Position numbers and translations under genes: made by a program
Assembly (NCBI GenBank): GCA_965238175.1
Contig: CBDEGZ010000003.1
Coordinates: forward strand, 2,272,001-2,336,000
Direction: 5' to 3'
DNA from: Gammaproteobacteria bacterium
GTDB taxonomy: Bacteria; Pseudomonadota; Gammaproteobacteria; CAJXQU01
DNA length: 64,000 nucleotides
The notes under the pieces: model-generated
The model's database searches: none
What the model was told of the DNA's origin: nothing
What the model saw: the letters and a program-made list of their open reading frames with translations, nothing else
Shown: positions 26,136 through 30,229 of the stretch, one piece after another
Layout: each line of letters opens with the position of its first letter
Position numbering within the stretch: the stretch's first letter is position 1

Positions 26136-27116
26136 ATGAAAAAGTATTTAATTGCTAGCCTGGTACTTCTCAATTCATCTTTCGCTTTTTCTCATGACTA
26201 TGAGAGCGTCCGCCCAGATTCACACGCACCCTATGGCGTCATGGGTGATCATACGCATAAATTGGGTGAGGTGATGTTGTCGTATCGATTTATGCGTATG
26301 GAAATGAATGATAACCGCGATGGAACGGATCGACTCAGTGATTCTGAGGTTTTAGCTGATTTCCCTGTTGCTCCAAGAAAGATGACAATGGATATGCATA
26401 TGTTTGGCGCTATGTATGCACCCAATAACAAGTTAACACTGATGGTAATGGTTCCTCTGCTTAATATATCGATGGATCATGTTACACGTACGGGGGGGGA
26501 ATTCACGACCAAAACTGATGGCTTTGGAGATGTAAAACTGTCAGGTCTGTATTCGCTATACGAGCATGGCAACCATAGAGTTCACCTGAATGCTGGGATC
26601 AGTTTACCGACTGGCTCCGTTGACGAACGTGATGATACTCCCATCATGGCAAATGCTATCCTTCCCTACCCAATGCAACTTGGTTCAGGAACTTATGATC
26701 TACTACCTGGTATTACCTACAATGGGCAAACAGTAGCATGGTCCTGGGGCGCTCAATTATCAGGTGTTGTTCGGCTTGGTGAAAACGATGAAGATTATAC
26801 ACTCGGTAATAAGATTGAATTAACCGGCTGGGTCGCGCATAAATGGAATGATCATATTAGCACCTCATTCCGACTTGCGGGTCAAAACTGGGGAAATATA
26901 GATGGTAGTGATGATCGTCTAAACCCAAATATGGTCCCAACTGCAGATACTGATCGCCGTGGAGGGGATCGCGTTGATGCACTTGTGGGCATCAATTATA
27001 AAATGGCCGGTTTTAGAATCTCAGCTGAAGTAGGTGCACCGGTATACCAACATCTTGACGGCCCACAATTAGAAACAGACTGGATAGGCACAATTGGTAT
27101 GCAGTACGCTTTCTAG
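26136..27116 (+). CDS. Outer-membrane beta-barrel 'transporter' (MetA/phenol-degradation-like family) with Met/His-rich N-terminus
   Basis: Signal peptide, HAPYGVMGDHTH, M-x-M-x-M-H-M strands, PYPMQLGSGTYD, C-terminal aromatic YAF. Confidence 0.75.
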   Translation: MKKYLIASLVLLNSSFAFSHDYESVRPDSHAPYGVMGDHTHKLGEVMLSYRFMRMEMNDNRDGTDRLSDSEVLADFPVAPRKMTMDMHMFGAMYAPNNKLTLMVMVPLLNISMDHVTRTGGEFTTKTDGFGDVKLSGLYSLYEHGNHRVHLNAGISLPTGSVDERDDTPIMANAILPYPMQLGSGTYDLLPGITYNGQTVAWSWGAQLSGVVRLGENDEDYTLGNKIELTGWVAHKWNDHISTSFRLAGQNWGNIDGSDDRLNPNMVPTADTDRRGGDRVDALVGINYKMAGFRISAEVGAPVYQHLDGPQLETDWIGTIGMQYAF

Positions 27117-27211
27117 TTATTTAACCTGATGTGATGGTCTCCTCCCCCTAACGGCATCTAGGTGCCATGATTGAACTGACATACACACAATCAAAAGAGG
27201 AGAAGACCAAA

Positions 27212-28225
27212 ATGAAGACTACAACAATCGGGTTAGACATAGCAAAAAACGTATTTCATGCTGTCTGCTGTAATCAACAAGGGCGTATAATCAAAAAGAA
27301 AATGTTAAAGCGAGCGCAGGTACTCTCCTTTTTTCAATCTCAACCTCCTTGTTTAGTCGCAATAGAATCTTGTGCAACGTCACAGTATTGGGCCCGAGCG
27401 ATACAACAACAGGGACATCAGGTGAAATTACTACCACCTCAGCATGTTAACGCATTTCTAATCGGCAATAAGAATGATTATAACGATGCCTTGGCCATCG
27501 CCGTTGCTGCGAAACAACCTCATTTAAAAAGTGTGGGCATTAAATCAGTTGAGCAACAAGACAACCAGGCACAACATAAAGCAAGAGACTTAGCGGTCAG
27601 ACAAAGAACCGCATTATGTAACCAAATGAGAGCGCTTGTTGCAGAATATGGCATTAGCCTTCGTCCCGGCCTAAATACCCTACGTCAATCTATCCCGTTG
27701 CTATTAAGTGATGAGAACGAACGGTTGTCCGTTACTTTCAAAAGGATACTGCGCCAGCTAAAGGAACAATGGCAATCACTTGATGCCTGTATTGCGACAT
27801 TTGACCAATTGATCATTCAATCGGCAAAAAACAATGCGATTTGCCAACGCTTACAAACTATTCCAGGGTTTGGGCCGATGGTCTCGAGCGCGTATTTTAA
27901 TGAAGTGGGAAACGGCGCTCATTATCACAAAGGGCGCGATGTGTCCGCCTCATTAGGACTTGTTCCACGACAGTACAGTAGTGGTGGTAAAGAGGTGCTA
28001 CTGGGGATCAGTAAACGCGGCAATAAATACCTTCGTTGTTTGTTAATTCTAGGCGCGAAGGCCGTGGTATCAAGAGCCAAAACGAAAGGCGATAAACTGA
28101 GTCAATGGATTAATCGTTTAGTTGAGACGCGGGGGCATAATCGAGCGTGTGTGGCGTATGCCAACAAAATGGCAAGAATGGCCTGGGCTATAACGGTTTC
28201 TGGTGATGACTACTCACCGGCCTAA
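27212..28225 (+). CDS. IS110-family DEDD recombinase/transposase
   Basis: GLDIAK, AIESCA, KNDYNDA (RuvC DEDD); TIPGFG; GLVPRQYSSGGK (catalytic Ser); SD GAGGAG before ATG 27212. Confidence 0.95.
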   Translation: MKTTTIGLDIAKNVFHAVCCNQQGRIIKKKMLKRAQVLSFFQSQPPCLVAIESCATSQYWARAIQQQGHQVKLLPPQHVNAFLIGNKNDYNDALAIAVAAKQPHLKSVGIKSVEQQDNQAQHKARDLAVRQRTALCNQMRALVAEYGISLRPGLNTLRQSIPLLLSDENERLSVTFKRILRQLKEQWQSLDACIATFDQLIIQSAKNNAICQRLQTIPGFGPMVSSAYFNEVGNGAHYHKGRDVSASLGLVPRQYSSGGKEVLLGISKRGNKYLRCLLILGAKAVVSRAKTKGDKLSQWINRLVETRGHNRACVAYANKMARMAWAITVSGDDYSPA

Positions 28226-28277
28226 ATAGAGAGAACAAATCATTTCAACGAATTGCGAAGGTAAAACTAAAGATGGC

Positions 28278-28432
28278 ATAACAGGTCAAACCAGCCTATT
28301 GAAAACCTGTCGAGCTCAGGGGTAACTAATACCGATAACCTGATAAGGAAAATAGGCGCGTAATACATCCAGGTCAGAAGTTGAAAACTTCATTGAAGGC
28401 CGTATATATGACAGCAATCCTGTCCCTGTTAT
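28278..28432 (+). ncRNA. Putative bridge RNA/seekRNA of the IS1111 element
   Basis: Outer stem ATAACAGG/CCTGTTAT; stem GCCTATT/AATAGGC enclosing target-matching segments; donor-matching ATATATGA at 28404-28411. Confidence 0.7.
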
Positions 28433-28471
28433 CTGAATGTTTTATCTTGCAATACGGGAGGAGACCATATA

Positions 28472-28678
28472 TGAACTCGGGATAAGGGTGACCCTAAAAA
28501 CATTAAAAGACAATGGGCTAGATGAAAACACTGTGACTGTTTTGTCCGGTGGATTTCTTTTAATGGCTATTAAGGCGGAGTTGCGTAGCAATAGCGAGCT
28601 ATATTGGAGACAACTCTAACGCACTGAGGCGCTAAAAAAGTCTGCTGGATAGGTATTTCTTATCCCAAGTTCAGATTA
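28472..28678. repeat. MITE/ERIC-like element (~210 bp) whose left terminal IR is split by the IS1111
   Basis: Reconstructed left end TAACC|TGAACTCGGGATAAG matches the reverse complement of CTTATCCCAAGTTCAGATTA (28659-28678) at 18/20; TA at both ends; internal stem GAGTTG..CAATAG/CTATATTG..CAACTC. Confidence 0.7.
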
Positions 28679-28882
28679 TTTAGCATATTAGTGCTGTAAT
28701 ATACTATTTCTTAAGGAGCTTTCAACTCCCTTTATAACCCAAGTTAAATTTTGTCTCAAATCAGCGACAGTTTAATTCTCCCCTGTTAACCAGTTCGAAC
28801 TGTCCCTATAATACTGGCTCTTATTGGGGAATGGGAGTCATTGTTGTTCTGTGTATCGGCAGAATAACATAATCAAATCAAA

Positions 28883-30229
28883 ATGCTTTTTTCTATAAAG
28901 AAAGGCTTGGATCTGCCTATTTCTGGACAACCAGACCAAAAAATTGACAACGCAGCTGCGATTAAAACTGTCGCTATTTTGGGCAATGATTATATTGGAA
29001 TGAAACCTAGGCTACAGGTTCAAGAAGGCGATAATGTCAGGCTGGGTCAAACTCTTTTCATTGACAAGAAGAACACTGGTGTCAAATTTACCTCTCCCGG
29101 CGCAGGAACAGTCAAAGCGATAAATCGTGGTGCTAAACGCGTTCTACAATCTGTAGTTATTGAATTAGAGGGTGATGATGCAGAGACATTTGAAAAATTT
29201 GATCAAAATACGTTGTCTAACCTCGAACGATGTGTCGTAAAGGAAAATCTGATCAATTCCGGACTTTGGACAGCGTTAAGAACCCGTCCTTACAGTAAAT
29301 CACCAAAACCAGACTCAGTACCAAGCTCAATTTTTATCACCGCAATAGATACCAACCCACTTGCTTGCGACCCTGAGACTGTTATCAAAGAACAGGCCGA
29401 GTCATTTAATGATGGTGTTATTGTTCTATCTCGTCTAACCGACGGTAAAATATTTGTTTGTAAGTCTGACCAAACAGATATAAACATTACTCAAACCGAG
29501 CAAATTGAACTTCATAATTTTGCCGGCCCACACCCTGCTGGACTGGTTGGCACCCATATCCATCATCTTGATCCGGTTAATAGTGAAAAAATGGTCTGGC
29601 ATATCAATTATCAAGAGGTCATTGCTATAGGAAAATTATTCACCACCGGCCAATTATGGGTTGAACGAATTATTTCTATCGCAGGCCCAATGGTTAAACG
29701 ACCAAGATTACTACGCACAAGACTTGGAGCAAACACTGAACAACTGCTCCATGAAGAAACGGAACATAAACCTTCTCGTGTTATTTCCGGATCAGTTCTA
29801 TCTGGTCATCAAGCATCTAACTGGGCGGCGTATTTAGGTAGGTTCCATCAACAAATTTCTGTTATTGAAGAAAAAACTGATCGAGAATTCTTTGGCTGGA
29901 TAAAACCGGGACGTAATAAATTTTCAGTATTGAATGTATTCATATCGAAGTTCCTTGGCGTTAAGAAATTTAATCTAAACACATCACAAAATGGTAGTCC
30001 TAGAGCCATGGTACCAATAGGTGCCTTCGAGGGCTTGATGCCGCTTGATATTTTACCAACCCAATTACTCAGAGCGCTTGTTGTAAAAGATACTGATGCC
30101 GCTCAACAGCTGGGTTGTCTTGAATTGGATGAGGAGGATTTATCCCTTTGTTCATTCGTTTGCTCGGGAAAATATGACTATGGCCCCGTGTTACGAACTA
30201 ACCTGAACCAGATAGAGAAAGAAGGATAA
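28883..30229 (+). CDS. nqrA: Na+-translocating NADH:quinone reductase subunit A
   Basis: [33 protein letters not shown] end. Confidence 0.97.

Follow-up and report, generated by a model that had tools for sequence, protein, structure and literature searches.

An IS1111-group insertion sequence with a predicted bridge RNA whose guide segments follow target and element ends

The locus described here, in a stretch of 64,000 nucleotides (the window), raises the question of whether the long non-coding region downstream of a transposase gene encodes an RNA that reads both the site at which the element inserts and the ends of the element itself. Our answer is that it very probably does: we take the element to be an IS1111 insertion sequence, active or recently active, with a DEDD recombinase and a bridge RNA or long seekRNA of ~165 nt that would read target and donor. 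Bridge RNAs and seekRNAs for IS1111 elements were described in 2024 (PMC11187229, PMC11208160), and positions 27129-28471 of the window are an IS1111-group insertion sequence that is a new example of this known RNA-guided type. The element and its coding parts are laid out as follows.

27129..28471, + strand: IS1111-group insertion sequence, 1343 bp, with ends ATGTGATGG... (left) and ...CCATATA (right)
27134..27146, + strand: left subterminal inverted repeat ATGGTCTCCTCCC, 13 bp, exact against 28456-28468
27212..28225, + strand: DEDD transposase/recombinase, 337 aa, beginning at ATG 27212, with PF01548 and PF02371
28456..28468, + strand: right subterminal inverted repeat GGGAGGAGACCAT, an exact inverted copy of 27134-27146

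TGA stands at both borders (27127-29 and 28472-74), the empty site is reconstructed as TTAACC-TGA-ACTCGGG, and the assembly-graph contig of the repeat spans 27122/27123-28474 in two DNA runs. The subterminal repeats are set in 5 nt from the left end and 3 nt from the right end, and the 3′ non-coding region (NCR) is 246 nt long (28226-28471) compared with 83 nt for the 5′ NCR (27129-27211). IS1111 elements are described as having subterminal inverted repeats of 7-17 bp, short terminal extensions, and a longer NCR downstream of the transposase gene, tnp (PMC11187229, PMC11208160), and their proteins as having 330-350 aa, the D-E-D-D residues, and a GL-P----S/T-G motif (PMC11187229). Of the features that define the group, the window has the domains, the catalytic residues, the protein length, the subterminal repeats, the long 3′ NCR, and site- and orientation-specific insertion.

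The recombinase had been called apparently intact in the initial annotation; it has an open frame of 337 aa, two Pfam domains, and invariant DEDD residues. PF01548 (DEDD_Tnp_IS110) scores 59.8 bits against a cut-off of 29 (E 3.6e-16) and PF02371 (Transposase_20) 71.8 bits against a cut-off of 21.3 (E 6.4e-20). D9, E52, D89, D92 and the motif GLvPrqySSG (S257-G258) are invariant in a protein alignment of 8 sequences, which leaves out relative L080. We set the start at ATG 27212, and discarded ATG 27167, because GAGGAG lies 9 nt upstream of the former and the relatives begin there; the homology queries with the transposase began at 27203, i.e., with three additional residues.

The genome (3.35 Mb) belongs to an uncultured, Methylophaga-like marine gammaproteobacterium, its NqrA matching a MAG best, at 90%, and Methylophaga at ~70%. 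It contains 24 full copies of the element and a 25th that is cut by a contig start. Over 1348 nt, 22 of the full copies are 100% identical and 2 are 99.93% identical, and the transposase frame is open in all 25. So many near-identical copies with open frames argue for recent activity, and on this comparison the element appears to be active or recently active. The sole differences among the 24 full copies are two substitutions, an A to G in the copy at C3:747417-748764 (window-equivalent 28397, next to the 3′ strand of the stem in the donor loop, on its 5′ side) and a C to T within tnp in the copy at C3:393960-395307 (window-equivalent 27850). The genome also holds solo left-end fragments of the IS at C3:1154716-1154798, 1393274-1393344, and 2897431-2897503 (40-83 nt, 84-100% identity), among which one pair is inverted and overlapping, and a remnant of a related element at C3:2357911-2358383 that is 79% identical and has a broken transposase frame. 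A different IS110-family transposase gene, with a 332-aa open frame and a PF01548 score of 91.5 bits, lies at C3:1730241-1730693 (-).

A second and far commoner IS of ~1.23 kb (C3:946626-947851, L288) encodes a 344-aa protein with HTH_29 and rve/rve_3 domains. It is present in at least 60 copies, and the genome is unusually IS-rich. The sites into which the IS1111 element inserts are described with the following features, all of which lie outside the element.

27122..27126, + strand: left target half (LT) TAACC, predicted partner of the 3′ guide in the target loop
27127..27128, + strand: left core dinucleotide TG, which is TG in 24/24 copies (YG is common to family junctions)
28472..28473, + strand: right core copy TG
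28474..28479, + strand: right target half (RT) AACTCG, tallied over 24 sites
28474..28674, no strand assigned: MITE-like repeat of ~200 bp, the landing site, outside the IS; its terminal inverted repeat ..CTGAACTCGGGATAAG.. / ..CTTATCCCAAGTTCAG.. holds the target

Insertion is site- and orientation-specific. Mapping the other copies in the genome, which had been suggested as a check with unrelated sites as the adverse outcome, placed all 24 copies that have both flanks at AACC-TGA, with TAACC in 23 of them, and over 40 nt the left flanks all differ from one another. The right flanks of the same 24 copies have the consensus ACTCGG; taking the A of TGA as position 1, the six RT positions are A at 24 sites, A at 19, C at 16, T at 22, C at 17, and G at 14. 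At three sites with a poor right flank (ACTGTAG...), the flank is the end of the rve-type IS, which abuts two bases after TGA, and these three flanks have probably changed since insertion and so differ from the sequence that was present at that time. The MITE-like repeat has 9 copies in the genome (86-100% identity), and 6 of them have an IS copy at one end. Each such repeat offers two potential targets in opposite orientation. We rejected the idea that the left half alone picks the site, since the genome contains 244 occurrences of TAACCTGA but the element sits at only 24 full-flank sites; therefore, the right half must contribute.

Next to be considered is the RNA. In the 3′ NCR, we predict the following RNA gene and its parts.

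about 28272..28434, + strand: predicted bridge RNA / long seekRNA gene, ~165 nt, its ends placed by conservation and the closing stem
28274..28285, + strand: 5′ strand of the closing stem, pairing with 28419-28431; helices 1-2
28294..28357, + strand: target-binding stem-loop, with stem 28294-28300/28351-28357 and an inner 3-bp stem 28306-08/28346-48
28358..28415, + strand: donor-binding stem-loop, with stems 28358-59/28414-15 and 28372-75/28398-401 and hairpin 28378-81/28387-90

The RNA from this region is thus predicted to fold into two stem-loops, each with an internal loop, and a stem that closes the whole. The RNAalifold consensus of 41 sequences comprises 35 pairs, of which 15 show compensatory changes, and 97.3% of the cells are paired compared with 28-39% when the partners are slid; none of 500 shuffles reached any of these measures. 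The closing stem (helices 1-2) is paired in 96-98% of cells and varies by G-C/G-U exchange with one compensatory pair, the target stem-loop (helices 3-5) has compensatory changes in 8 of 15 pairs, and the donor stem-loop (helices 6-8) has 6 pairs with such changes. The fold of the window sequence by itself has z = -2.68. The stem GCCTATT 28294-28300 / AATAGGC 28351-28357 and the mini-hairpin GGTA/TACC (28321-24/28330-33) of the target stem-loop had been proposed at these same positions.

A covariance model, R1, was built from the RNA alignment A1, a model of IS1111 right ends having been one of the checks suggested at the outset. In the window's genome, R1 finds 25 matches, one for each IS copy and none elsewhere, so that the conserved RNA is present in every copy, and it matches the 3′ NCR in 18 of 19 further sources; the one without a match is a degraded remnant in this same genome. 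The 18 include plasmids of E. coli, Enterobacter, and Vibrio, on which IS1111-type elements with proteins only ~45% identical are matched at 74-88 bits. R1 has no match at the IS110-family gene at C3:1730241-1730693. At least 106 stretches in the genome collection contain the donor-segment motif. A scan of 26900-28900 with Rfam 15 at E up to 10 gave 0 matches, and this absence shows only that Rfam 15 lacks a matching model.

Within the two internal loops are four segments that we predict to be guides.

28310..28320, + strand: guide 1 (right-target) UCGAGCUCAGG, against top strand CC-TG-AACTCGG with 9 Watson-Crick pairs, 1 G-U pair, and 1 C-A mismatch (RT+2)
28335..28344, + strand: guide 2 (left-target) AUAACCUGAU, identical to top strand TAACC-TG-AT and able to pair with the bottom strand
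28364..28369, + strand: donor guide UACAUC, able to pair with top strand G-ATGTG (core G and left end)
28404..28410, + strand: donor guide AUAUAUG, identical to right end ATATA and core TG

In the first loop, the partner of UCGAGCUCAGG would be the target's top strand (core TG and right flank) and that of AUAACCUGAU its bottom strand (left flank TAACC and core), and the two together would specify ~13 bp in the terminal repeat of the MITE-like element. The UACAUC and AUAUAUG of the second loop would each pair with one strand of the circle junction (..CCATATA-TG-ATGTG..). The base after UACAUC is a C; an A would be required at this place to pair with the first base of the core. The initial annotation had picked out CGAGCTCAGG (28311-28320), TAACCTGA (28336-28343), ACATC (28365-28369), and ATATATGA (28404-28411), and we found each of these at the positions given. 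The order of the target guides, with the one complementary to the top strand (28310-20) before the one complementary to the bottom strand (28335-44), is the same as that published for IS1111 seekRNAs, in which the former lies 5′ of the latter (PMC11187229).

To see how these segments vary, we compared related elements. A scan of species-representative genomes gave 80 loci with 46-78% protein identity, most of them in marine Gammaproteobacteria and Desulfuromonadales. Together with the window, 57 of the 80 share the ends [YG]ATG(T/A)(G/A)ATGGTCTCC ... GGAGACCATATA[YG], with the core of the left subterminal repeat, ATGGTCTCC, conserved in all 57; the 23 loci that do not have this end pattern, several of which are a sister group with TATGGACCC repeats, were left out of the flank analysis. 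In 54 non-identical elements, the last 215 nt are a conserved scaffold interrupted by four variable segments. Segment 1 (28310-20) is the reverse complement of the core and right flank, segment 2 (28335-44) is the left flank and core, segment 3 (28364-69) is the reverse complement of the core G and left end, and segment 4 (28404-10) is the right end and core, and all four co-vary with the DNA that they match.

For the target segments, the mean number of matches to an element's own flanks was 5.52 for segment 1 and 4.70 for segment 2, compared with 3.36 and 1.66 for the flanks of other elements (50 elements), and none of 10000 flank permutations reached the observed match, either with these 50 elements or with 31 representatives of guide classes. 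Position by position, segment 1 agrees at RT+1 to RT+6 and at both core bases in 24-30 of the 31 guide classes and at LT-1 in 23, while segment 2 agrees at LT-1 to LT-5 in 21-31 of the 31 classes and at the core, with LT-6 at the level of chance (5/31). From this reading (RT+1 to RT+6, the core, and LT-1 to LT-5), the target footprint is therefore ~13 bp, and the target read by the guides is TAACC-TG-A(A/G)CTCG.

For the donor segments, segment 3 has ACAU or UCAU according to whether base 4 of the left end is T or A in 49 of 53 elements, and in 49 of 54, segment 4 has the same Y as the core at the right junction. The T/AC state changed at least 3 times on a transposase tree of 51 rows, which leaves out three rows whose ORFs are shorter than 300 aa. 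On this copy by itself, the donor matches are at the level of chance: in mononucleotide shuffles of 28226-28455, the donor 8-mer was found in 318 of 5000, and a junction bottom-strand 5-mer in 4940 of 5000, so that the ACATC match is worthless alone. Across the family, the guide columns follow their own flanks and the donor columns follow the ends, and thus both loops are rescued. The earlier claim that the second loop can be read directly against the donor consequently stands in part, since its single-copy match carries no weight while the family covariation points to donor complementarity. The claim for the target loop holds on one copy as well as in the family.

Handshake-like pairing was rejected in the same comparison: the two bases that follow the core in segment 4 match the right flank in 13 of 31 guide classes, a level reached by 1812 of 10000 permutations.

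The bases that the elements have in common at both junctions bear on the core. An earlier reading had proposed TGA as the core, and this was an overcall. In 54 aligned relatives, only YG is common to both junctions, and the A that follows it belongs to the left end (ATG...), of which it is the unvarying first base. Since the right flank here happens to begin with A as well, a TGA core cannot be told apart from TG plus A at this locus, and the family comparison suggests that what is duplicated is probably just TG, or YG in the family as a whole. The core and the guides disagree in some relatives. TG at the left junction core is accompanied by CG in the left-target guide in 11 of the 54 elements; these loci include L065, L067, L070, L073, L082, L083, L087, L091, L093, and L110, and in those ten, the right junction and the right-end donor guide are also CG. 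Most of the 11 have CG at the right junction, and in most, CAUU replaces CAUC in the donor guide for the left end. L078, L096, and L098 combine TA at the right junction with TG in the guides. The way in which mismatches between donor and target cores are resolved may lie behind these disagreements. At L181 (Vibrio campbellii plasmid NC_022271.1), the right junction is ..CCATATA-GGTG-AGCA and the left is ..AAGGTG-ATGAG, so that four bases rather than two are common to both junctions.

Other accounts of the same region have to be weighed. The matches between NCR and flanks could be due to chance, or target sequence could have been miscounted as part of the element, and short matches are indeed easy to find, as the 5-mer in 4940/5000 shuffles illustrates; the right flanks are also themselves repeated in the genome. 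However, both target matches together (the exact 8-mer and the 10-mer with <=1 mismatch) occurred in only 7 of 5000 shuffles of this copy and in 0/10000 family permutations, the element boundaries are the same in relatives with unrelated flanks, and the flanking repeats are 86-99% identical where the IS copies are 100% identical. We give this account next to no credence. It is also very improbable that the conserved 3′ region works as DNA, whether as recombinase binding sites or as a DNA-DNA pairing device. The compensatory changes keep 35 pairs, and G-U pairs appear only when the + strand is read, which is the signature of an RNA on that strand; homologous IS1111 regions, moreover, are described as yielding RNAs that co-purify with the transposase (PMC11187229). 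What speaks for a DNA-level role is that there is no internal promoter and that a look-up found no RNA run containing the sequence.

The remaining account accepts the RNA as a target seeker only, with the second stem-loop as a scaffold or precursor, the protein recognizing the ends through the subterminal repeats, and the donor matches unused. In its favour are the length and near-invariance of the subterminal inverted repeats in the family, donor matches that do not exceed chance on this copy, and bases after the core in segment 4 that ignore the flanks. It would also agree with the report that a short seekRNA of ISEc11 (~82 nt) is enough for movement in assays and gave movement better than the long form (PMC11187229), so that the role of the second loop in IS1111 rests on covariation and on comparative inspection (PMC11208160). 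Nevertheless, we consider it unlikely that the donor matches are unused, given the concordance of both donor segments with the ends, with at least 3 independent co-changes of left-end base 4 and the RNA. Both donor segments also lie in an internal loop flanked by covarying helices, and donor complementarity is reported for the IS1111 bridge RNAs inspected in PMC11208160. We thus return to an RNA that would read both target and donor as the preferred reading; the element class, the covariation of the RNA, the covariation of the guides, and the published guide order all agree with the RNA-guided IS1111 architecture that had been proposed from the window.

How such an RNA would be made is suggested by the circle junction, where we find one half of a candidate promoter in the right end of the element.

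28447..28452, + strand: candidate -35 TTGCAA of a junction promoter; TATG lies 17 nt later and, with AT of the left end, makes TATGAT in the circle only

CTTGC-AA is conserved in the NCR alignment, and a search for sigma-70-like promoters on the + strand within 27000-28700 found none. For IS1111, the only promoter reported is that formed in the circle (PMC11187229), and both the lack of an internal + strand promoter and the TTGCAA-17-TATGAT at the junction fit that statement. From published IS1111/IS110 work, we infer that the RNA would be made, probably from the circle-junction promoter TTGCAA-17 nt-TATGAT, that it would bind the recombinase, and that recombination would take place at the TG core. 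The DNA contigs of three runs from one sample had no circle junction and no empty site; they contained only a collapsed repeat contig with loose ends leading to the flanks of other copies.

One feature of the target sites concerns the stringency of this pairing. At RT+2, the guide predicts G, which is present at 3 sites, while A is present at 19/24; the guide has C where those 19 sites would need U. The C is derived, as U is found at this position in close relatives. All six RT positions are matched at none of the occupied sites, and the sole perfect match to both target guides in the genome, at C3:393937 (TAACCTGAGCTCG), is unoccupied. This site is inverted and lies 24 nt from the right end of the IS copy at 393960-395307. 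Because TAACC-TG is perfect at 23/24 sites, the RT+2 C-A mismatch is present at 19/24, and the perfect site is empty, it is conceivable, although we think it improbable, that IS1111 bridge recombination is asymmetric in stringency and that the RT+2 mismatch is favoured and tunes the direction of recombination. If the mismatch were favoured, the imperfect duplex with the right flank could disfavour the reverse (excision) reaction, and this would be a natural example of a guide-target mismatch that sets the direction of recombination.

From its anatomy, its sites, and the covariation of RNA and guides, we conclude that the element is of the genuine RNA-guided IS1111 type, as first read. It adds a natural ortholog to the RNA-guided IS110/IS1111 recombinases that are being developed for genome editing, and it is a compact system, with a 337-aa protein, a predicted RNA of ~165 nt, and a target footprint of ~13 bp that can be read directly. 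To judge from sequence comparison, it is a possible ortholog for use as a tool and may be programmable, since guides appear to have been naturally re-directed among relatives into 31 classes on a single conserved scaffold. These guide sets, at least 31 in number, are a map of the programmable positions of the RNA, and the 24 two-flank insertion sites in one genome are a record of specificity. What is known of the mechanism is unchanged, and the value of the element lies in a clean natural data set.

A predicted bridge RNA is reported for 93% of IS1111s, in their right end (PMC11208160), and the long forms of IS1111 seekRNAs are given as 148-172 nt (PMC13604230). The closest parallels are ISEc11, ISPa11, ISKpn4, and ISPst6, as described by Siddiquee et al. 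2024 (PMC11187229). Like the window element, these have a DEDD transposase of 330-350 aa with GL-P----S/T-G, subterminal repeats, a long NCR downstream of tnp, two guides that overlap at the insertion point, and a long RNA of ~150-170 nt, with a promoter described at the circle junction and none described internally. Their targets also lie inside repeats, which in their case are REP and attC, whereas the window target TAACC-TG-AACTCG lies in a MITE-like end; this comparison was made by description. The nearest plasmid-borne relatives of the window transposase are ~45% identical in protein. ISPa11 and ISEc11 were not identified by the plasmid scan or by the donor-motif scan of genome contigs (at least 106 stretches). 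The guides of the E. coli plasmid element L179 differ from the published ISEc11 target. The target given for ISPa11, GTAGGG-CG.. (PMC13604230), resembles the left flank GTAGGG-CG of relatives L075 and L077.

The bridge RNA of IS621, an IS110 element (Durrant et al. 2024, PMC11208160; structures 8wt6 and others), is described as similar in that one RNA has a target loop and a donor loop, each internal loop reads both strands around a 2-nt core, and the protein has a DEDD RuvC-like domain and a Tnp domain. In contrast, the window RNA is in the right end, 3′ of the gene, while that of IS621 is in the left end, and the order of the left and right guides within the loop is reversed (PMC11208160). 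The subterminal repeats are 13 bp here compared with 2-3 bp in IS621, and the core is TG (YG) compared with CT (PMC11208160). Similarity to the IS621 protein is detectable only in the C-terminal domain (E 2.2e-4).

Elements of the IS4321/IS5075 type and other IS1111s insert in an orientation-specific manner at a fixed position in the terminal inverted repeats of mobile elements. The host elements of the IS4321/IS5075 type are transposons of the Tn21 family, whereas the host repeat here is a non-coding, MITE-like repeat of ~200 bp in a marine gammaproteobacterium.
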